From contig JALONZ010000001.1 in NCBI GenBank assembly GCA_025454675.1, positions 1-30,719 of the forward strand: a stretch of 30,719 nucleotides of DNA, given 5' to 3'. The stretch is from Anaerolineae bacterium. GTDB lineage: Bacteria; Chloroflexota; Anaerolineae; Aggregatilineales; Phototrophicaceae. The translations under genes were made by a program, and so were the position numbers. Below the pieces are notes generated by a model, which saw only the letters and a list, made by a program, of their open reading frames with translations, searched no databases and was not told the origin of the DNA. Below are positions 8,840 through 24,775 of the stretch, one piece after another. Each line of letters opens with the position of its first letter. The first letter of the stretch is position 1.

Positions 8840-9994
8840 TTAGGACAAATTGCTCACCAATTGGATGAACAAATAGGTGGGCAACGATAAAAATAGCATC
8901 CCTGTGATGATTTGTACCTGATTGGCAGTGAATCGTTTGAGTTTGAATAACCATTCGCCAAATGAATAGACGGCATACGCCAGCCAAATCATCTGAATGA
9001 TGAAGAGGGGCATAATTAATACGGCACGGTCAGCCCCAAAATAGACTAAGCCAAATAGTACATGGGTGGCATATGCGACCATCAATACAACCCCTATCAC
9101 AGGATACCACCGCGCCATGCGTGCTAATCCGAATATACTGAGGGTGGCACCAATAATGGTGAATTGGGTGATGCTCATGCCGATGAGGTTCATCCAACGT
9201 AACCCCTCACGCCAACCGTCCGCGATAAGATAGGGTGTGGTTAATCCAGATTGGTGTGCCAATAACGCGGATGTATGCCATAAATCGGGATTGATATACG
9301 AATTAACGATGCCATAAATACTGATACCTACAAGTATCAGCATGATTGTCCAGTACCAAATCGGGATTTTGGTTTGGGATAGCCATAGTCCCAATGCGAC
9401 AGCGGGCAATATTAACCCAAATAAGGGGTCATTGATGATGCCGATGCCCAAAAGTAGCAAAATTCCCATGTATTGTTGTGGCATGATAGGGGTTGGGGGC
9501 TTTTCATCGGGGCGTGGATTGCTTTTGAACAGTGCATCCATCAGCAAAAAGATGAGCCATGCCGTCATGAGTGAGGTGAGGCGTAAACTGCGCGGTGTGC
9601 CGATTTGACTCCAGAAAATAACTGCAAATATAACCACACCAATACCTAATGCCAGATAGGGGCGTTTTAGGAATTGAATGACAACAAGGCTCATCACCCC
9701 TGCGATAAGCATTGCCAAAACAATGGTGGCTGGCACAAAACTGGTTGCACCACCTGTTTGTGACCAAAATGCGGGTGATAATGCGAGTGATATACCGCCT
9801 AAACAGGCGATTATCGCCCCGAATCGGCGTATGGTGATGCTGACCCCCACGATAACCAATGCTAAACCACTGGCACGGACGAAAGGTGTTTGCCCAATGG
9901 TGATAAAGGTGAGCCAAATGAATGCACCCGCAACCAGTGCGGGCAACCAATAGATAATAAGTTGTCGTGAGGGCAGAATAGACCGTTGTTGCAC
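8840..9994 (-). CDS. Hypothetical polytopic membrane protein (~10-11 TM), C-terminal half resembles DUF2723/TMEM260 GT-C-like proteins
   Basis: 384 aa, GTG start 14 nt after the pbp2 stop, mostly hydrophobic. Family resemblance recognised by eye only. Confidence 0.75.
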   Translation of the reverse strand: MQQRSILPSRQLIIYWLPALVAGAFIWLTFITIGQTPFVRASGLALVIVGVSITIRRFGAIIACLGGISLALSPAFWSQTGGATSFVPATIVLAMLIAGVMSLVVIQFLKRPYLALGIGVVIFAVIFWSQIGTPRSLRLTSLMTAWLIFLLMDALFKSNPRPDEKPPTPIMPQQYMGILLLLGIGIINDPLFGLILPAVALGLWLSQTKIPIWYWTIMLILVGISIYGIVNSYINPDLWHTSALLAHQSGLTTPYLIADGWREGLRWMNLIGMSITQFTIIGATLSIFGLARMARWYPVIGVVLMVAYATHVLFGLVYFGADRAVLIMPLFIIQMIWLAYAVYSFGEWLFKLKRFTANQVQIITGMLFLSLPTYLFIQLVSNLS

Positions 9995-16357: not shown

Positions 16358-17230
16358 ATGACCAACACAACAAGCGGCACTTTAGAACTAGCGTATGTTT
16401 TGGTTGTTGATGATGAGGGAGCGAACCGCTATTCTGTCAGCAAAACCCTGCAAAAAGTGGGGTATGTTGTGAGCGAAGCGGCGAATGGGGAAGAAGCCTT
16501 AGAACTCATTGCTCGCCAATCATTTGACGTTGTATTGACCGATATTCGGATGCCCGGTTTGGACGGCATTGAACTATTACGTCGTATACGCGAACACTCT
16601 CCCGAAGTGATTGTTATTTTGATGACGGCTTATGCTACGTTAGGTAATGCCGTGGAAGCCTTGCGCTTAGGCGCACATGATTACCTGATTAAACCCAGTT
16701 CAAGCGTTGATATTCGGCAAAGTGTGGCGCGTGGAGTGGAGCGTGCGCGTAACCTGAAACGTCGGCGTAATTTATTGGATGCAATTAAAAGCGATGTTTT
16801 TGAACTGGCTGTCTCGGATGTCTCTTTACCCCCCACCGAGAATCAGGATGAAAAACCTGTCCCCGAAGGGATTGAAATTAAAGGGGAAGGGGCAAATGCC
16901 ACCATGCAGTTGGGTCCCTTACTGCTATTCCCCAAACGCTATCAAATTTCCATCGAAGACAAAGAAATTGATCTAACACCCACCGAATTTGATTTGCTCC
17001 TCTATTTGGCGGCGCATCGTGGACGGGTGGTGACATGCGCCGAACTGGTGCGCGAGGTGCGTGGGTATGCTGTGGATGAGGTGGAAGCGCGTGAAGTTAT
17101 CCGCCCGCATGTGAGCAATTTGCGCCGAAAACTGAAAGATGCCAGCACCGAAGCCGATTTGATTGTGAATGTGCGTGGCATCGGGTATCGCCTGAGTGAA
17201 AAAGCGGGCGAAACCGAGTCATCTGAATAG
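16358..17230 (+). CDS. Response regulator with receiver domain and OmpR/PhoB-type winged helix
   Basis: 'LVVDDE', phospho-site 'LTDIRMPGLDG', 'YLIKP'; C-terminal 'LTPTEFDLLLYL...HVSNLRRKL...NVRGIGY'. Confidence 0.93.
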   Translation: MTNTTSGTLELAYVLVVDDEGANRYSVSKTLQKVGYVVSEAANGEEALELIARQSFDVVLTDIRMPGLDGIELLRRIREHSPEVIVILMTAYATLGNAVEALRLGAHDYLIKPSSSVDIRQSVARGVERARNLKRRRNLLDAIKSDVFELAVSDVSLPPTENQDEKPVPEGIEIKGEGANATMQLGPLLLFPKRYQISIEDKEIDLTPTEFDLLLYLAAHRGRVVTCAELVREVRGYAVDEVEAREVIRPHVSNLRRKLKDASTEADLIVNVRGIGYRLSEKAGETESSE

Positions 17231-17277: not shown

Positions 17278-19506
17278 TTGCGAATCGTCTCTTTAATCAT
17301 TGTATTGGCAATTTTTATCGGGGGGATTGGCTTTTTTTTCTACCCTAACACATATGCCCAAGCCATCTGTACCGAAACAAGCGGGCGCACAGAACGCCCC
17401 AGTTATTATGCGGGTACAATTCAGACCAATATGGTCTATACCATTTATTTACCCCCATGTTATGACCAAACCACCAAAAATTACCCCGTAATTTATTTGA
17501 TGCACGGCTCGAATGATGATGATAATCACTGGATACGCTTGGGCTTGCAAACCTATTTGGATGAATCAATTTCGAGTGGCAACATCCCGCCAATGATTGT
17601 GGTGTTGCCATTTGGAAATTGGATTGCTAATGAAAACCGGTTCGGATTCGATTCATGGGGGGCGGTATTTTTAGACCAACTCATGCCATTGGCGGAAAGT
17701 AGCTATCGGATTGATGCCCGCAAAGAGACACGCGCCATTGGTGGCATTTCCAGAGGGGGGTTTTGGGCATATCAAATTGGGTTGCGCCGTCCGGATTTAT
17801 TTAGCGCCATTGGTGGACATAGCGCCTTTTTTGACCGATTTCATGCCCCTCCAGAAGCAAATCCGCTTGATTTGGCTTTATCTGCGCCCAATATCGAGAC
17901 GATGCGTTTGTGGCTGGATAGGGGGGCGAATGACTATGCCGCGCCCGGTTTGGATATTATGGATGAGCGCTTAAGCCAACGCGGTATTCCCTATACGTAT
18001 ATTATCCATCCTGAAGGTGAACATAATAACACTTATTGGTCGGCGCATGTGGCAGAATACATTCAATTTTATGCCGATAGCTTGGTTTTTTCACAATCGC
18101 CAGATGCGACACCTAGCCTAGATTTGGGTATATTACCCCCACAACCCGCCTTATTTGTCACCAATACACCACGTTCACCTGAACCAACGCCGATAGATTC
18201 ATCAGGTATGGCGTTATTTTTGCCTGTGGTAGCGTTCCCTAGTATTCAATCCAGCATCGAAAATTCGCGTTTAGTGACTATCCAATCGGGCTTGTTGGAT
18301 AATAATTTTGTGGTGAGCGATGCGGTTGCTAACCAGTTAGTGGCGTTAGGAGTTGAATTGCCAATAGGCACGACTATTATCCCTGCTGATAGGTTGTATA
18401 ATACGCTTTGGCGTGATACAGGCAAATTCACACTTTTGCCTTTTGACCAAATCACGCCACGTTATCGGGTGTTGATGGTGGATGAATTGCATCCACTTGA
18501 CCAATTAGACCGTTATCCGTTTGCGTTTTGGGATGGGGGTACACCCAATTTTTATCCATCACGGCTCACACGGGTGTTGATGACGGGCGTAACAGCACTC
18601 ACACGCGATACAACGATTGCGCTGGATAAAAATGGTACAGATTGGGCAGTTTCTGCTATTTTGCCGTATACCCAAAACGCTGATTTTTTTCATATTAGCA
18701 ATGAAGTATCGTTTGTGGCAGATTGTCCGCGTGTGGGGATGAGTACCTTTAATTTTTGTAGTAAGCCTGCTCATTTTGATATTTTAACGGCGTTGGATGT
18801 GGATATTGTCGAATTGAGTGGCAATCACAACAATGATTATGGCTATGAAGCCTATATAGAAACACTGAATTGGTATGCTGAAAATGGCATGTCGGTGATT
18901 GGTGGTGGGCGCACATTATCAGAAGCGCAAACCCCCTATATTTTTGAACACAATGACAACCAGATAGGGATGATTGCGTGTAATTGGGTGGGTCCGTATT
19001 ATGCGTTTGTGAATGAAAACCCGTCATTAACAGGTGGTGTGCGCCCTGGTGCCGCAGAATGTAACCGTACATGGTTAGCAGAAGCGATTCCCCAATTGGC
19101 GGGGGCGGTGGATGTGGTGATTGTGACGGTACAATATTTGGAACTTGACCAATATCAACCGAGCAATCAACAACGCGCCGATTTTCGCTGGTTAGCAGAA
19201 TTGGGGGCGGATGTGGTCATTGGCACACAAGCGCATTTTCCGCAGACAATCGAATTTTTTCCGCAGGATGCCACCCAAGAGGCATTCATTCATTATGGAT
19301 TGGGGAATTTTTTCTTTGACCAAGAATTTTTCGCGGGCAAACGCGCCTTTTTAAACCAACTTTTTATTTATGATGGGCGCTTGCAGTTTGTTGATTTATA
19401 CCCTATCCTAATTGAAGGGCAGGGGCAACCGCGCCCTATGACTGCTGATGAACGCTTGAACTTTTTGCATCTGCTCCTCATTCAAAATGGGAGTTTTTCG
19501 CCATGA
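17278..19506 (+). CDS. Secreted fusion: alpha/beta-hydrolase esterase (Fes/antigen-85-like) + linker + CapA/PGA_cap-like domain
   Basis: Signal peptide; 'YLMHG', nucleophile 'GGISRGG', 'GEHN' His; Pro/Thr linker; CapA-like 'LSGNHNNDYG', 'GADVVIG..AH.PQ', 'YGLGNFFFDQ'. TTG start, RBS AAGGA. Confidence 0.85.
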   Translation: MRIVSLIIVLAIFIGGIGFFFYPNTYAQAICTETSGRTERPSYYAGTIQTNMVYTIYLPPCYDQTTKNYPVIYLMHGSNDDDNHWIRLGLQTYLDESISSGNIPPMIVVLPFGNWIANENRFGFDSWGAVFLDQLMPLAESSYRIDARKETRAIGGISRGGFWAYQIGLRRPDLFSAIGGHSAFFDRFHAPPEANPLDLALSAPNIETMRLWLDRGANDYAAPGLDIMDERLSQRGIPYTYIIHPEGEHNNTYWSAHVAEYIQFYADSLVFSQSPDATPSLDLGILPPQPALFVTNTPRSPEPTPIDSSGMALFLPVVAFPSIQSSIENSRLVTIQSGLLDNNFVVSDAVANQLVALGVELPIGTTIIPADRLYNTLWRDTGKFTLLPFDQITPRYRVLMVDELHPLDQLDRYPFAFWDGGTPNFYPSRLTRVLMTGVTALTRDTTIALDKNGTDWAVSAILPYTQNADFFHISNEVSFVADCPRVGMSTFNFCSKPAHFDILTALDVDIVELSGNHNNDYGYEAYIETLNWYAENGMSVIGGGRTLSEAQTPYIFEHNDNQIGMIACNWVGPYYAFVNENPSLTGGVRPGAAECNRTWLAEAIPQLAGAVDVVIVTVQYLELDQYQPSNQQRADFRWLAELGADVVIGTQAHFPQTIEFFPQDATQEAFIHYGLGNFFFDQEFFAGKRAFLNQLFIYDGRLQFVDLYPILIEGQGQPRPMTADERLNFLHLLLIQNGSFSP

Positions 19507-20180
19507 TTTGGATTAGAAAATACGGTATTTTTGCTTTTCTGGGGTTTATCATAACGGGACTGTTTGCCATTGCCTTTTTACCACCGCATCATTTCACATT
19601 TGAATTGGCGTATAACCTCAAACGGGTTTTATCGTTGTTTTTGGGGATAGCTTATGCGTTGGTGATAACCCTTGTCAATATAACCCCATTGAGCCTGTTG
19701 CTGATTTTTGTCGTCATCACCGCATTATTATGGGGATTATGGCAGGTTTGGCGTGCAAGGCGCTATCCGTTATTGATTTTTGTCACGGCATTGATTGGCG
19801 CGAATATTTTGTTTTTGGGGACGGGGAATTTCTTGGATATTGGGCGGTTAACTGCGCCAATATCCATCTGTGAGGATTATTTCATCACAGGGAAGACGGG
19901 TTTTCAGGTGATACGTTACCCGATTGAAGCCCGTCTGCGCGATGATGCCCAAACATTTATCCTTTTCTCAACGGATAATGGCACAACATGGCGACAAATT
20001 TTTACGGCATATGCGGTAAATCCACAAATTGCGGGGTGTGATAATATCGAGGCGAATTTTAATGAAGATACGGCTTGGTCGGTTATTTTTGAACAGCGTA
20101 TTGATAACACATTGCAAAATGAACGGATTCAATATCAAACATCAGACAGTGGTAATACGTTTGTGCGGGTAAATCCATGA
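19503..20180 (+). CDS. Hypothetical membrane protein with two Asp-box (BNR) motifs
   Basis: N-terminal 3-4 TM helices; 'STDNGTTW' and 'TSDSGNTF'; ATGA overlaps on both sides. Confidence 0.75.
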   Translation: MIWIRKYGIFAFLGFIITGLFAIAFLPPHHFTFELAYNLKRVLSLFLGIAYALVITLVNITPLSLLLIFVVITALLWGLWQVWRARRYPLLIFVTALIGANILFLGTGNFLDIGRLTAPISICEDYFITGKTGFQVIRYPIEARLRDDAQTFILFSTDNGTTWRQIFTAYAVNPQIAGCDNIEANFNEDTAWSVIFEQRIDNTLQNERIQYQTSDSGNTFVRVNP

Positions 20181-21856
20181 TGGATGACTATAATCACCGT
20201 GTAAAAGCGCAACATGTTGCGCCCTTACGACTCATTTTAATTTCTGTGTTATTACTTGTAGTGCTGATTGCACCCATTTCTGCCCAAGCTGACCCGATTC
20301 AAGCCCGCCTTGACCAGATGACCCTGCAACAAAAAGTCGGGCAGATGTTTTTGATTCATACATATAGTAATCGGTTGACTTTTGTGGGGCGCGAATTGCT
20401 TCAGACATGGCAACCTGCGGGGGTGGTTTTATTTGATAATAATATCGGCACGCCACAAGCCACCACCCAACTGGTGAATGAATATCAATCCGCCATGACA
20501 GAAGTGGGGGCGATTCCGTTATTTGTTTCTACCGACCAAGAAGGTGGTTGGATTATGCGGATGCGTGACGGATTTACTGAATTGCCCCCGATTGCACTGG
20601 TTACAGCTACGGATAACCCCGATTTATCGCACCGAATGGGATTGGCGATGGCGACAGAAGTCCGTGCGGTTGGGGTGAATCTGAATCTTGCGCCTGTCGC
20701 CGATTTGGATACGAATCCGAATAATACGGTCATCGGGCGGCGTTCACCGGGTGGATACCCTGATTTAGTGGGGCGGATGTTGGAAAATTACATCGCGGGG
20801 ATGCAATCAGGTGGGGTGATTGCCACCGTCAAACATTTTCCGGGTCATGGTGATACTTTAGAAGATTCGCATATTTTTCTGCCAGAAATCGGTTATACAC
20901 CCGAATTTTTGCGTGGGCGCGAATTGATTCCGTTCATTCATGCTATCAATGCGGATGTGGGTGCGGTGATGGTGGCGCATATTTGGTTTTCGGCAATAGA
21001 TAGCCAAGAATTGCCCGCAACCCTATCATATAATGTTATCAGTGGATTATTGCGTGGCGAATTGGGTTATAATGGCATTATCATGACGGATGCGATGGAT
21101 ATGGATGCGATTACAGCACGCTATACGCCCGAAGAAGCCGCCATTCGTGCAATTTTGGCGGGTGTGGATTTGGTTGTATATGGCGCGGGATTTAGCGAGG
21201 CACGGCAACAAGGCGCGATGCAAGCCGTTTATGACGCGGTTTTGGATGGTCGGATTGATGAAGCACGGATAGATGAATCGGTATATCGGATTTTATCGGC
21301 AAAATACGAATATGGATTGATGGATTGGCAACCCCAAGACCCATCTACCGCGCCTGAACGCATTGCCAGCGCTCAAACTGTGGATTTATTGCCTGATGTA
21401 TTTGATGCGGGTGTGACGGTGGCATATGACCACTTTAATCAAGTACCTGTGGATAGCCAAACACAGGTGGCGATTATTTATCCCGGTCAACGGACACTTA
21501 TCCCGCGCGAATGTGATGTGCATCATCCTGATATACAATGGTTGCCTGTGAGTAATGCGCCGACAACCGATGAAATTCAATCGGCTGTGGCATTGGCAGG
21601 GCGGGTGGATGTGGTGGTTGTATTTACGCGCAATGCGATTGCGATACCCGCGCAAATTGCATTGGTACGTGCTTTACCACCCGAAAAGACGGTAGCCGTT
21701 GCGTTATATTCACCTTATGATGGACGCGAGTTTGCTGATGTGGGTGCGTATATGGTTACATATGCGCCACAAGACCCAGGTATTAGCACCGTTTGTAAAA
21801 TTTTATTCGGTATAATGCCCCCACAAGGGACATTGGCAATCACCTTACAGCCGTAG
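20177..21856 (+). CDS. Secreted GH3 beta-N-acetylglucosaminidase (NagZ-like, two-domain)
   Basis: 'STDQEGG', 'APVAD', 'KHFPGHGDTLEDSH' (NagZ-type D-x-H dyad), nucleophile 'MTDAMDM'; signal peptide ending ISA-QA. Confidence 0.9.
   Translation: MMDDYNHRVKAQHVAPLRLILISVLLLVVLIAPISAQADPIQARLDQMTLQQKVGQMFLIHTYSNRLTFVGRELLQTWQPAGVVLFDNNIGTPQATTQLVNEYQSAMTEVGAIPLFVSTDQEGGWIMRMRDGFTELPPIALVTATDNPDLSHRMGLAMATEVRAVGVNLNLAPVADLDTNPNNTVIGRRSPGGYPDLVGRMLENYIAGMQSGGVIATVKHFPGHGDTLEDSHIFLPEIGYTPEFLRGRELIPFIHAINADVGAVMVAHIWFSAIDSQELPATLSYNVISGLLRGELGYNGIIMTDAMDMDAITARYTPEEAAIRAILAGVDLVVYGAGFSEARQQGAMQAVYDAVLDGRIDEARIDESVYRILSAKYEYGLMDWQPQDPSTAPERIASAQTVDLLPDVFDAGVTVAYDHFNQVPVDSQTQVAIIYPGQRTLIPRECDVHHPDIQWLPVSNAPTTDEIQSAVALAGRVDVVVVFTRNAIAIPAQIALVRALPPEKTVAVALYSPYDGREFADVGAYMVTYAPQDPGISTVCKILFGIMPPQGTLAITLQP
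20201..20228. repeat. REP-like palindrome inside the GH3 5' coding region
   Basis: GTAAAA-GCGCAACATGTTGCGC-CCTTAC. The 16-bp core (20207-20222) is a perfect palindrome with GTA.../...TAC ends. Confidence 0.7.
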
Positions 21857-21884: not shown

Positions 21885-21938
21885 AAATTCACGTTAACTT
21901 TATATGCAGATGATTTCTTGAAGATAGATGGTGATATT

Positions 21939-24182
21939 ATGGGGACACTTAACCCAGATTTGCTTTCAAAAGATGCTGTTGTGGCATTAAATACTGCGGT
22001 TCAGTTCAAAAAACAATTCCGCAAAGATACCATTATGCCCGAATTGTTGTTATTAGCCTTATTGCGCCAAGAAAATACCGCCGCCCGCCGTTTATTGGAT
22101 ATTTTTAAGACCAATCGCGGGGTGGATTTGGAACGACTGGATAAACAAGTAGAGTTGGCGATTGAAAGTCGGCGCGACCAAAGCGGGAATTTAGATTTTG
22201 TGGCAACGGGCAATCAATCTGTGTCACTCTCACGCCAAACGATTATCCTGATTGATGATGCCCTTAGCCTTGCGAATTCACAAGATGAGGTGCGTGTAGA
22301 TACAGACCATCTCCTTGCGGTACTCAGTGAAAGCAGTATGAGTACAAGCGGGATTTTACGGCAACACGGCATCACACCTAAAGCCATACAAGATATCCTT
22401 TCGGATTATAGTAGCATTCGTCGCCGTCCCGATGGGACAACCCAAGATTTTGTGGCAGATGCCAAAGCGGGTACGCTGAAAGCGGTGCATTTCCGTGAGG
22501 ATTTGTTGCGGTATATCATCAATATCATTTCACAATCGGTCAAACGGCATGTGATTTTGGTGGGACCCGATGGTGTGGGCAAGCGCACCCTCGCATATAG
22601 TTTGGCGCTCCTGATGGCAGAAGGCAAAGGTCCCGCAGGTTTGACGAATTTGGTGCAAATTGATGAATCGGCACTGTTAGATAATGACCAAAAAGCAGTG
22701 CGTGCGGGGATGAGCAAAGCCACAGGTGGCATTTTATTTGTTGCCCATATTCATCGGTTTTTTGGCGGACCCATCAAGGCAGAATTTTCTAAAGCCACAC
22801 CGATGATTCAAAAAGCGTTTTTAGCGGATGACCCTGTGATTATCGCATCCACCACCGAGACAGAATATAACCAACGCTTGGCAGGCGTGAGCGCCATCAC
22901 CGAAAATAGTCAAATTGTGCGTGTGCCAGAACCATCCATCGAAGAAACGGTGGAAATGCTGAATATTCGCAAGCCTCATCTGGAAGCTGATTATGACATT
23001 GAAATTATCCCAGAGGCGCTCGCATTGGCGGCACGACTTGCGAAGCGATATATGGCGAAAACACCCCTCCCATTGAGTGCCGAACAATTGCTTCACCGTA
23101 CCGCCGCGATGGTGAATATGAGCAAGCAAGAAAATTTGGCATTCAAACCCGAAGCGCGTGACCATATTTTGGATGCAGAGGACATCACTTTCACCGCCAG
23201 CCAGATGACGGGTATCCCCGTGAATAAATTGGGTGAAGATGAACGCCTGCGTTATGCCAGCATGGATGAACACCTGAAAGAACGGATTATTGGTCAAGAT
23301 GTGGCGGTGGGGGCGGTCAGCCGTGCCATTAAAACGGCGCGGGTGGGGTTAAAGGATTCAAAACGCCCAATCGGTGCATTTTTATTTCTGGGTCCAACGG
23401 GTGTTGGTAAATCGGAATTGGCGAAGGCGCTGGCGGAATTTATGTTTGGCACAGAAGATGCCATGTTGCCCCTCGATATGTCCGAATTTAAGGATGAGTC
23501 GAGCCTGAATCGGTTGATTGGGTCGCCAAGTGGTTATGTGGATAGTGAAGCAGGCGGGCAACTCACAGAACGAGTACGCCAACAACCGTATATCATCGTA
23601 TTATTTGATGAGGTGGAAAAAGCACACCCACGCATTATGGATATTTTGCTTCAAGTGATTGAAGAGGGACGCTTGACGGATGGGCGCGGGAATCCGACCA
23701 ATTTTAGCGAGACGGTGATTATCCTCACCAGCAATTTGGGGTCAGAATCTCTGGCTGTGCCTGTGATTGATGATGATGCGCGTGAAGAAGCGATGGAAGA
23801 TGTTCGTACATGGTTCAGACCCGAATTTTTGAATCGGCTGGACGAAGTGATTATGTTCAACGCGCTGGATGAAGAAAATTTAGGCAGAATTTTGCGCTTA
23901 TTGCTCAAAAAAGAGAATAAGATGGCAGAAGAACGGGGCTTAAAATTGTCTTTCACAGATAAAGCGATTGCGTGGATGATGGGACAAAATGACGAACCCG
24001 AATATGGGGCGCGTCCGTTGCGCCGTATCATTCGCCGTAGTGTCCGTGAACCCCTCGCCGACTTTTTGCTCAAGACGAATCCACCCGTTGGGACAGAAGT
24101 GGTCATTGATTCCAACGCGGTGAGCGATGCCACGCTTGTTTTTAAGGCGTTGTATGATGGTAAAGAAGTGGCGATAGGATAA
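21939..24182 (+). CDS. Clp/Hsp100-family ATPase with degenerate first AAA+ module
   Basis: Double Clp-N repeat; intact D2 ('GPTGVGKSELAK', 'GYVD', 'LFDEVEKAHP', 'FRPEFLNRLD', 'GARPLRR'); D1 motifs altered. ATG at 21939 preferred over TTG at 21918. Confidence 0.9.
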   Translation: MGTLNPDLLSKDAVVALNTAVQFKKQFRKDTIMPELLLLALLRQENTAARRLLDIFKTNRGVDLERLDKQVELAIESRRDQSGNLDFVATGNQSVSLSRQTIILIDDALSLANSQDEVRVDTDHLLAVLSESSMSTSGILRQHGITPKAIQDILSDYSSIRRRPDGTTQDFVADAKAGTLKAVHFREDLLRYIINIISQSVKRHVILVGPDGVGKRTLAYSLALLMAEGKGPAGLTNLVQIDESALLDNDQKAVRAGMSKATGGILFVAHIHRFFGGPIKAEFSKATPMIQKAFLADDPVIIASTTETEYNQRLAGVSAITENSQIVRVPEPSIEETVEMLNIRKPHLEADYDIEIIPEALALAARLAKRYMAKTPLPLSAEQLLHRTAAMVNMSKQENLAFKPEARDHILDAEDITFTASQMTGIPVNKLGEDERLRYASMDEHLKERIIGQDVAVGAVSRAIKTARVGLKDSKRPIGAFLFLGPTGVGKSELAKALAEFMFGTEDAMLPLDMSEFKDESSLNRLIGSPSGYVDSEAGGQLTERVRQQPYIIVLFDEVEKAHPRIMDILLQVIEEGRLTDGRGNPTNFSETVIILTSNLGSESLAVPVIDDDAREEAMEDVRTWFRPEFLNRLDEVIMFNALDEENLGRILRLLLKKENKMAEERGLKLSFTDKAIAWMMGQNDEPEYGARPLRRIIRRSVREPLADFLLKTNPPVGTEVVIDSNAVSDATLVFKALYDGKEVAIG

Positions 24183-24184
24183 GT

Positions 24185-24775
24185 TTGGTGGACGATAAGG
24201 TTAATAAGACGCACGCTAGTCGCCCATTTCCAAAACGCCCAGATGATGGCTATTCGGCTTGGCAAGCGACAATGGGTTATATCAATATGCACCACAGCCC
24301 TGATGCGTTGCTTCAAGTGGAAGCCTATTCGCAACATGCGAAAGTATTTTGGGGTGCATCTGTATCATGGGCGGATAATCGAGAAGCTGTTGATAATTGT
24401 TTGTCGTTGCCCATCGCATTGCATGATTTATGGATGCAAGTGGAGAGGCAGTATCGCATTTTTAATAATCCAGCCGATGCGTTGCGCCGTCCATTTGGGT
24501 ATAAGGATGATGAATGGTTTGATGATGCCACACTCGATATTTTGCATCGGCTGATTCATACTACCCAAAGTGTTTTTGGTGATGATTGGCGCATTTTATG
24601 GATTTATCAACCATCCGAAACACCCGAAATGCGTGTACAAATGCGAATGCTCGCTGATAACATGAATCGTCATGCGGGTGGGCGTGGCGCAAGTTTATTA
24701 GATGCAGGGCGCGAATTATTTCGGAATGCCGCGCCTATTTACCAAGCCTTTTTAGAATCTCGTGATAACTCATAG
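24185..24775 (+). CDS. Hypothetical soluble protein, 196 aa, coupled to the Clp gene
   Basis: Starts 2 nt after the Clp stop, RBS AGGA, fills the gap to pmm exactly. No family recognised. Confidence 0.75.
   Translation: MVDDKVNKTHASRPFPKRPDDGYSAWQATMGYINMHHSPDALLQVEAYSQHAKVFWGASVSWADNREAVDNCLSLPIALHDLWMQVERQYRIFNNPADALRRPFGYKDDEWFDDATLDILHRLIHTTQSVFGDDWRILWIYQPSETPEMRVQMRMLADNMNRHAGGRGASLLDAGRELFRNAAPIYQAFLESRDNS

Follow-up and report, generated by a model that had tools for sequence, protein, structure and literature searches.

CapA and PgsA are known from work on capsules and on poly-gamma-glutamate (PGA), and their chemistry is poorly understood. Recently MslH, a lasso-peptide epimerase acting on a C-terminal Trp, showed that the CapA fold can sustain non-phosphoesterase chemistry, working with one Ca(II), held by E44, N87, H259, and H261, and two catalytic His/Asp dyads (H88/D91 and H295/D11), with no dinuclear phosphoesterase centre (PMC10406935). 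Here we describe a gene from a member of the Chloroflexota, a group with an atypical and little studied cell envelope (PMC13319060). It lies at positions 17278..19506 of the forward strand of a 30,719-nucleotide stretch (hereafter the window) that opens contig JALONZ010000001.1 of an Anaerolineae bacterium of the family Phototrophicaceae (GCA_025454675.1), and it encodes a protein in which a CE1-type esterase, a single lobe of PstS type, and a CapA-fold domain with an altered site follow one another. We use the name CapA* for the subfamily that has this altered site. A literature search (PGA_cap, "CapA family protein," and PgsA/phosphoesterase) returned nothing on the CapA* subfamily or on its fusion to an esterase, and the novelty lies in a subfamily of the CapA fold whose site is rewired and whose domain partners are new, which opens a testable question on the chemistry of the fold and on the Chloroflexota wall.

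The reading that we favor, and to which we give an even chance, is that the fusion is a two-activity enzyme remodeling an envelope polymer, with a CapA* site that has been remodeled and holds one metal ion or none. The protein would be a secreted or membrane-tethered envelope enzyme of three modules. The first would be an esterase of the CE1 (feruloyl/acetyl-xylan) type with a functional Ser-Asp-His triad, placed on a flexible Pro/Thr tether, and the other two a single PstS-like lobe and a CapA-fold domain with a rebuilt version of the ancestral two-metal site. From this site two His ligands and the motif-I Asp are gone, the Glu, the Asn, the His/Asp dyad, and the last His are kept, and conserved polar residues have been gained (R443, H472, Q619, D681, and Q682, plus H672 in most members). 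Such a site might bind no metal, or at most one hard metal ion of Ca/Mg type with oxygen ligands from Glu, Asn, and Gln, and would perform acid/base chemistry on, or tightly recognize, an anionic group of the envelope polymer, while the esterase would remove or transfer an acyl group on the same polymer.

The site of the CapA* domain

The CapA* domain comprises residues 433–742 (18574..19503, + strand). The PGA_cap profile PF09587 matches residues 434–682 (E 1e-39, 136.6 bits against a cut-off of 27) over profile positions 3–255 of 255, and residues 425–736 superpose on the AFDB model of B. subtilis CapA (TM score 0.72, root-mean-square deviation 2.9, 318 residues) and also on B. anthracis CapA and M. 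tuberculosis Rv0574c. For the C-terminal part the top structural match was MslH (8gq9; Foldseek E 1e-17), and sequence search yielded no other PGA_cap relative with a solved structure. The domain belongs to PF09587 by profile and by fold and does not have the canonical motif set of that family (GD, NxE, NNH, H(G/W)G, and GHxxH), nor does it fall within the MslH-type epimerases (NF038314), for which it scores 20.3 bits against a cut-off of 700.

The motifs were mapped in three ways, by phmmer to MslH, by hhalign to a canonical CapA profile (probability 98.8), and by MAFFT. In the phmmer alignment N87, H88, and D91 of MslH fall on N516, H517, and D520, and H261 falls on L621. Both phmmer and hhalign place H259, the motif-IV His of canonical HGG, on Q619, E262 (the Glu of HGGxE) on E622, H292 (the first His of GHGPH) on T650, and H295 (the last His of GHGPH) on H653, while hhalign adds the Glu of NLE at E476 and the Asn of SLGN at N677. 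The motif-I Asp maps by MAFFT to V438 or T439, neither of them acidic, in alignments one residue apart. The site motifs of CapA* therefore read G-V-T...R443, H472-x-S-N-E476, G-N516-H517-x-x-D520, Q619-x-x-E622, G-T650-x-x-H653, and H672-Y-G-x-x-N677-x-x-x-D681-Q682. The first-pass annotation of this stretch, made from the sequence alone, had quoted several motifs (GISRGG, GEH, TGVTALTR, SNE, GNH, QYL(E), and GTQAH), all of which are present in the translation. The ligand losses that it described are borne out, as is the retention of NE, GNH, and the last His, and its list was too short in that E622, D520, and N677 are kept as well; likewise the acidic residue of "GD" is indeed gone, though the Asp position corresponds to V438 or T439 and not simply to the Val of "GV." Its doubt about a classical dinuclear phosphoesterase centre was well placed, because the motif-I Asp, the motif-IV His, and the first His of GHxxH are all missing.

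Set against CapA/PgsA of the Bacillus PGA synthetase, the fusion shares the Glu of NxE, the N-H-x-x-D motif, the Glu that follows motif IV, motif V's last His, and the Asn of (S/G)LGN, but it lacks the Asp of GD, the His of HGG, and the first His of GHGPH, has conserved residues of its own (R443, H472, N475, H672, and D681/Q682), and carries an N-terminal PstS-like lobe and an esterase. Set against MslH, CapA* has equivalents of H88/D91, H295, E44 (E476 here), and N87, whereas the Ca ligand H259 is Gln, H261 is Leu, and Asp11 of the second dyad is absent, so that the Ca ligands are down from four to two and the dyads from two to one and a half. Moreover, MslH is cytoplasmic and encoded in a cluster for a peptide made on the ribosome and modified afterwards (RiPP), whereas the fusion protein is exported and its gene sits in an envelope context. 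The switch from His nitrogen to Gln, Glu, or Asn oxygen ligands, together with the kept dyad and the precedent of MslH, suggests one hard metal ion or none, and a site for acid/base chemistry or for recognizing a carboxylate or other anion.

These alterations are far from private to the protein of the window. An exhaustive HMMER search with residues 290–742 found 8639 cluster representatives at E ≤ 1e-3 and 269 at E ≤ 1e-30, and the conservation counts given here refer to the best 149 of the 50%-identity cluster representatives. E476, H517, and D520 are present in all 149; R443, H653, and N677 in 148; E622 in 147; H472 in 146; Q682 in 143; and Q619 and D681 in 142 each. Position 438 is V, T, P, or C and never acidic, position 439 is T or S in 147, and position 650 is S, T, or V in every aligned member, so that three positions of the calcineurin-like dinuclear ligand set are altered or occupied by non-ligand residues throughout. 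The subfamily signature can be written as G[VT]T..R, HxSNE, GNHxxD, QxxE, G[ST]xxH, and GxxNxxxDQ, and H672 is kept in most members. A 94-sequence alignment with a mean identity of 32% has 21 invariant columns, 14 of them in the six ancestral active-site loops. With the altered residues fixed across so large a subfamily, the site is remodeled and under strong selection, and private decay does not account for it. One fused and fully syntenic homolog (P0124, at L014 and L025), about 45% identical in CapA*, has His at 619 and also His at 475; a Gln/His exchange at 619 is what would be expected of a ligand position, and this natural variant is useful for probing position 619 as a metal ligand.

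The first-pass annotation had taken the CapA part for a degraded fold serving only in targeting or binding, and in that form the claim is not supported, since the site residues are fixed across the 149 representatives and 53 of the 80 CapA* loci analyzed (see below) have no esterase. The related explanation, in which a catalytically dead fold only binds the envelope polymer and thereby brings the esterase or acyltransferase there, seems to us possible but doubtful. Three classical metal ligands (motif-I Asp, motif-IV His, and first GHxxH His) are lost across the subfamily, fusions of CapA* to serine hydrolases come in two independent forms, and a long flexible tether holds the esterase, an arrangement common for catalytic modules joined to binding modules. 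Inactivated calcineurin-fold domains are known to act as scaffolds, as in Vps29 and the B subunits of replicative DNA polymerases, and CapA* resembles them in having a metallophosphoesterase fold minus the classical metal ligands. Those proteins, however, are intracellular scaffolds whose former active sites are poorly conserved, whereas in the CapA* domain the former active site is the best-conserved part. The equivalents of the MslH His/Asp dyad are invariant and H653 is conserved likewise, eight polar residues have become newly fixed around the old site, the 53 loci just mentioned lack any hydrolase domain, and the tandem expansion of paralogs is more typical of enzymes, or of receptors with diversifying specificity. 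These points may still leave room for a dedicated, lectin-like binding site. Because the site residues are fixed, the dyad equivalents kept, and most members devoid of an esterase, the CapA* domain has a function of its own, which may be catalysis or specific binding.

We have also considered that CapA* represents a new enzyme class on the calcineurin/CapA fold, one that would be extracellular, dependent on one hard metal ion or metal-free, and based on the dyad, that would catalyze a non-phosphoester reaction, and that, widespread in bacteria of the Anaerolineae type, would have been recruited repeatedly beside serine hydrolases and a GT-C glycosyltransferase. This is an ambitious proposal that we consider rather unlikely; candidate reactions would be epimerization, or amide or ester cleavage, at a carboxylate-bearing unit of a Chloroflexota wall polymer.

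Export, esterase module, and PstS-like lobe

The open reading frame encodes 742 residues from a TTG start to a TGA stop, with a ribosome-binding-site-like AAGGA 8–9 nt 5′ of the start. Both parts of the architecture proposed earlier, esterase and PGA_cap, are matched by Pfam (PF00756 and PF09587). At least 467 homologous proteins were found at E ≤ 0.001, and all 120 of those among the matches listed have both domains, on contigs that reach 6 Mb. A misassembly or chance fusion was considered and is ruled out by the hundreds of full-length homologs and the contigs of up to 6 Mb. The closest named source of a homolog is a Phototrophicales metagenome-assembled genome (76% identity). The fusion is genuine, a conserved and secreted protein found in a single lineage of Chloroflexota. 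Homologs are named in databases as "CapA family protein," "enterochelin esterase-like enzyme," or "poly-gamma-glutamate synthesis protein," the last two of which are misleading for the fusion.

Residues 1–30 (17278..17367, + strand) are predicted to form a signal peptide or anchor, a hydrophobic segment (helix 2–20 in the model) that runs up to YAQA and is followed by Cys31, which fits export, as had been proposed. C31 and C61 are both invariant in an alignment of 24 homologs, which suggests a disulfide between them. The AlphaFold2 model of the whole protein has a predicted local distance difference test score (pLDDT) of 91.8.

The esterase module (residues 31–272, 17368..18093, + strand) was identified by the PF00756 profile at residues 47–258 (E 1e-18, 68.2 bits against a cut-off of 22), by phmmer against the PDB (7xrt, E 3e-22; 1jjf, E 6e-21), where the triad aligns residue for residue, and by Foldseek (5vol, TM score 0.82). 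S158, D219, and H249 fall on chain positions S153, D211, and H241 of XynZ (1jjf), which, with a constant offset of 19, we take to be Ser172, Asp230, and His260 of the XynZ paper. The alpha/beta-hydrolase fold and the Ser-Asp-His triad in register place the module in CE1/PF00756, and the triad is invariant across the 24 homologs; the impression that the esterase motifs are intact was right, and the module looks catalytically competent. It resembles the CE1 feruloyl and acetyl-xylan esterases XynZ (1jjf), BT_4077 (7xrt), and Bacint_04212 (5vol) in fold (TM scores 0.77–0.82) and in the register of the triad, but its identity to these is only 22–27%, the fusion protein has no carbohydrate-binding or xylanase module, and its gene comes from a likely phototrophic Chloroflexota lineage and adjoins cell-wall genes. 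An enterochelin-esterase role was tried and rejected, as the neighborhood has no siderophore genes and carbohydrate esterases of CE1 give the best matches. That the N-terminal domain is instead an acyltransferase of the antigen 85/PS1 mycoloyltransferase kind, building an acylated wall glycan, strikes us as highly improbable. PF00756 does take in the antigen 85 and PS1 transferases, C. glutamicum PS1 (6sx4) gives a weak match (E 8.5e-6), and in one homolog, P0125, a PMT-like GT-C glycosyltransferase precedes the esterase–CapA* unit, but the best matches in both sequence and fold are hydrolytic CE1 enzymes and the co-translated partner of the fusion is a degradative exo-glycosidase of family GH3 (see below).

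The esterase is followed by a Pro/Thr-rich linker (residues 273–305, 18094..18192, + strand), predicted to be disordered (pLDDT < 50 over residues 273–303) and of variable length between homologs. The region of about 120 residues after it, described at first as unassigned, is real, a module of 127 residues at 306–432 (18193..18573, + strand), and can be assigned after all, by its fold. Modeled alone from a 51-sequence alignment (pLDDT 94.9), it matched PstS proteins in Foldseek (1twy, E 7e-5, TMq 0.60; 4exl and 4q8r, E about 1e-4, TMq 0.6) and in VIA-align, an independent all-against-all comparison (Z 9.0 to 4gd5 and 8.9 to 1twy), with model residues 1–124 corresponding to PstS residues about 100–276. 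The agreement of the two methods leads us to assign it, from the model, as one lobe of the PstS-type periplasmic-binding-protein fold. A protein language-model search pointed to PBP_like_2 (score 0.80), which is borne out at the fold level only, as a Pfam search of the region gave no profile match at E ≤ 10 and NCBIfam and atlas naming of it gave no profile match either; with one lobe and no profile match, the module stands outside the PstS-type binding proteins proper. The model is of high confidence for the lobe and for CapA*, and no segment of low confidence separates the two.

Across the wider family the lobe shows no conserved polar residue, and the only near-invariant residues are hydrophobic or structural ones (Phe, Leu, Pro, and Tyr). 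We read the lobe as a probable structural or accessory element, PstS-shaped but not a phosphate-binding site. This bears on the possibility that CapA* is still a metal-dependent phosphoesterase, acting on phosphodiester-linked wall polymers or linkage units (such as teichoic-acid-like polymers or GlcNAc-1-phosphate linkages) or in phosphate scavenging, with the lobe helping to bind phosphate. The likeness of the lobe to phosphate-binding proteins would fit such a role, and so would the retention of the motif-II Glu, the motif-III Asn-His, and the last His of motif V, the motif-IV His kept in P0124, and the polyphosphate kinase PPK1 that divergently adjoins stand-alone CapA* genes in 10 of 53 loci. 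We nevertheless judge it decidedly unlikely, given that the motif-I position is non-acidic in each of the 149 representatives, that every aligned member has Ser, Thr, or Val in place of the first His of GHxH, that the lobe lacks conserved polar residues, and that the canonical phosphate site between two lobes is impossible with one.

Distribution and domain partners of CapA*

A motif scan of species-representative genomes found CapA* in at least 575 genomes, and the best 80 loci were analyzed for architecture and neighbors. Almost all of these are from Chloroflexota (Anaerolineae, Aggregatilineales, Phototrophicaceae, Ardenticatenaceae, and others). The fusion of esterase, lobe, and CapA* accounts for 27 of them and the remaining 53 have a stand-alone CapA* of about 550–600 residues; all the stand-alone proteins inspected have signal or lipoprotein-like N-termini. 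Tandem copies occur in 12 of the 53, and tandem paralog pairs were also seen at L005:3842-7233 and L007:3585-6970; a genome may have as many as three copies (G184, G202, and G234). CapA* is a large subfamily, mostly of exported stand-alone envelope proteins of Chloroflexota, and is unrelated to PGA capsule synthesis.

Variations of the architecture were also seen. P0137 has the esterase and CapA* without the lobe, and in P0228 (L010:3733-5997) and P0249 CapA* is followed by a C-terminal alpha/beta hydrolase of the Peptidase_S9/DLH type with a GxSxG motif. In the latter two CapA* has been joined to a serine hydrolase independently, in reverse order to the fusion with PF00756, and fusions of alpha/beta hydrolases to CapA* arose at least twice. 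A further architecture, P0125 (L011:6001-9729, 1242 residues), combines a PMT-like GT-C membrane glycosyltransferase, the esterase, and CapA*, and a gene for an 812-residue GH3 protein comes directly after it, a hint that the target of the system is a glycan, either lipid-linked or at the surface. The fused form, again with GH3 directly downstream, is present in the complete genome of Aggregatilineales bacterium SYSU G02658 (L033), which is listed with no MAG tag and is presumably an isolate, so that experiments are feasible. An abundant exported family with repeated hydrolase fusions provides a handle on the modification of wall polymers in Chloroflexota.

In a GTDB class sample the fusion was matched at E ≤ 1e-100 in six of the eight other genomes of the same family and nowhere else. 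Five of the six matches span the esterase part and the sixth spans only residues 313–740, within an open frame of 738 residues. As for PGA synthesis, profile searches found no capB or capC in the window, as had been noted, and the search recommended for the genome was equally negative: the CapC and PgsB profiles (PF14102 and TIGR04012) had no match in the genome itself (63% complete) or in five same-family genomes, 96–98% complete, that carry the fusion, while the B. subtilis control was positive. In these five relatives the fusion is the sole PGA_cap protein. As neither CapB/PgsB nor CapC/PgsC co-occurs with it, the fusion does not form part of a PgsBCA/CapBCA system, and a role in a PGA capsule is ruled out by the five near-complete relatives that carry the fusion and have no CapB or CapC.

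The same bin (G000) contains a canonical CapA gene on a 6.1-kb contig (C273, 5047-5772; L001:1264-2529, minus strand) with GD, NLE, NNH, FHG, and GHGPH intact. Among Acidobacteriota, the Pyrinomonadaceae supply its best named homologs, at about 70% identity, and the contig probably entered the bin as a contaminant. We set it aside as a canonical paralog of the organism itself on account of this Acidobacteriota-like character and of the lack of a second PGA_cap gene in the five near-complete relatives, and used it only as the canonical reference profile.

Gene neighborhood and the proposed envelope polymer

In the window the TGA of the fusion gene overlaps, as ATGA, the ATG of a gene for a 225-residue membrane protein (19503..20180, + strand), which in turn overlaps, again as ATGA, a gene (20177..21856, + strand) for an exported NagZ-type GH3 beta-N-acetylglucosaminidase (KHFPGHGDTLEDSH; PF00933; 6k5j, E 4e-87; YbbD, E 4e-61) with an N-terminal signal-like segment. 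Through these overlaps the three genes are translationally coupled. It is this co-production with a small membrane protein and with a NagZ-type N-acetylglucosaminidase that is exported that would make an O-acylated, GlcNAc-containing wall polymer, either peptidoglycan or a secondary wall glycan, the likely substrate. Directly upstream of the fusion is a gene for an OmpR-type response regulator (16358..17230, + strand; Pfam and NCBIfam profiles), with tilS also upstream, and the opposite strand of the window carries mreB-mreC-mreD-pbp2, a gene for a 384-residue protein, minC/minD, and rodA. An envelope-polymer role for the fusion, as suggested from the outset, fits this context of an exported GH3 and wall genes.

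The GH3 of the window is comparable to the B. subtilis NagZ (YbbD), also an exported two-domain GH3 encoded with other exported wall-processing enzymes, and shares with it the motif KHFPGHGDTxxDSH. Here, however, the partners are the esterase–CapA* fusion and a small membrane protein and not AmiE/NamZ, and the link of GH3 to the fusion is found in only some of the fused loci, GH3 lying within 3 kb in 12 of the 27. A strong NagZ linkage, drawn from synteny when the first six contexts were alike, was weakened by this count. The response regulator is the most conserved neighbor of the fusion gene, within about 4 kb in 23 of the 27 fused loci, 19 of which have it directly upstream and on the same strand, and the Clp-like ATPase is alongside in 23. 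TilS, the response regulator, the Clp-like ATPase, PGM, and MreBCD-PBP2 form a conserved chromosomal block within one lineage. The block around the fusion is largely inherited synteny, and the link to GH3, though real here, is not universal.

Several observations weigh against the two-activity remodeling enzyme that we favor. No GH3 lies within about 6 kb of the CapA* match in 15 of the 27 fused loci (a few loci being shorter), and much of the synteny of the fusion gene may reflect inheritance rather than function. The contexts of stand-alone CapA* genes, which share none of the neighbors of the fused loci, are unrelated to one another (kynurenine-formamidase-like, PPK1, and NSAR/OSBS) and show no envelope theme. 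Two same-family genomes, 98% complete, have no match to the fusion at E ≤ 1e-100, and one of them has none at E ≤ 1e-50, which makes the gene dispensable. Finally, the conservation of the CapA* site fits catalysis and specific binding alike.

Among the remaining features of the window, the 225-residue membrane protein has several N-terminal hydrophobic segments and a C-terminal Asp-box-like S-T-D-N-G-T-T-W with weak BNR matches only; a homolog was detectable in one of the 27 fused loci, and in the contig of P0031 an unannotated gene for 167 residues occupies its position. After the GH3 gene come those of the Clp/Hsp100-like ATPase (21918-24182, + strand) and of a 196-residue protein (24185-24775, + strand). 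In 11 of the 23 fused loci that have it, the Clp-like gene directly follows the fusion gene, with no GH3 detected there. The 384-residue open reading frame between pbp2 and minC (8840-9994, − strand) has no Pfam match even at E ≤ 10.

Around the stand-alone genes, an N-acylamino-acid racemase/OSBS-type enolase lies beside CapA* in 6 of the 53 loci. Recycling of murein peptides, considered because of these MR_MLE neighbors, was rejected, as the enolase is of the NSAR/OSBS type (1sja, E 3e-98) and not a dipeptide epimerase, and so few loci have it. PPK1 is divergently upstream in 10 of the 53 (including L040, L041, L064, L068, L079, L080, L091, and L092), with a gap of 17–199 nt in eight, an arrangement that may indicate a shared regulatory region or a link to phosphate. 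The most frequent of these neighbors is a kynurenine-formamidase-like metal hydrolase (PF04199; 1r61, E 4e-34), directly downstream on the same strand in 16 of the 53 loci, where its gene is separated from that of CapA* by 7–183 nt where measurable and overlaps the end of the CapA* gene in four; examples among L040–L094 are L058:6928-7569, L089:2256-2948, and L083:6944-7573.

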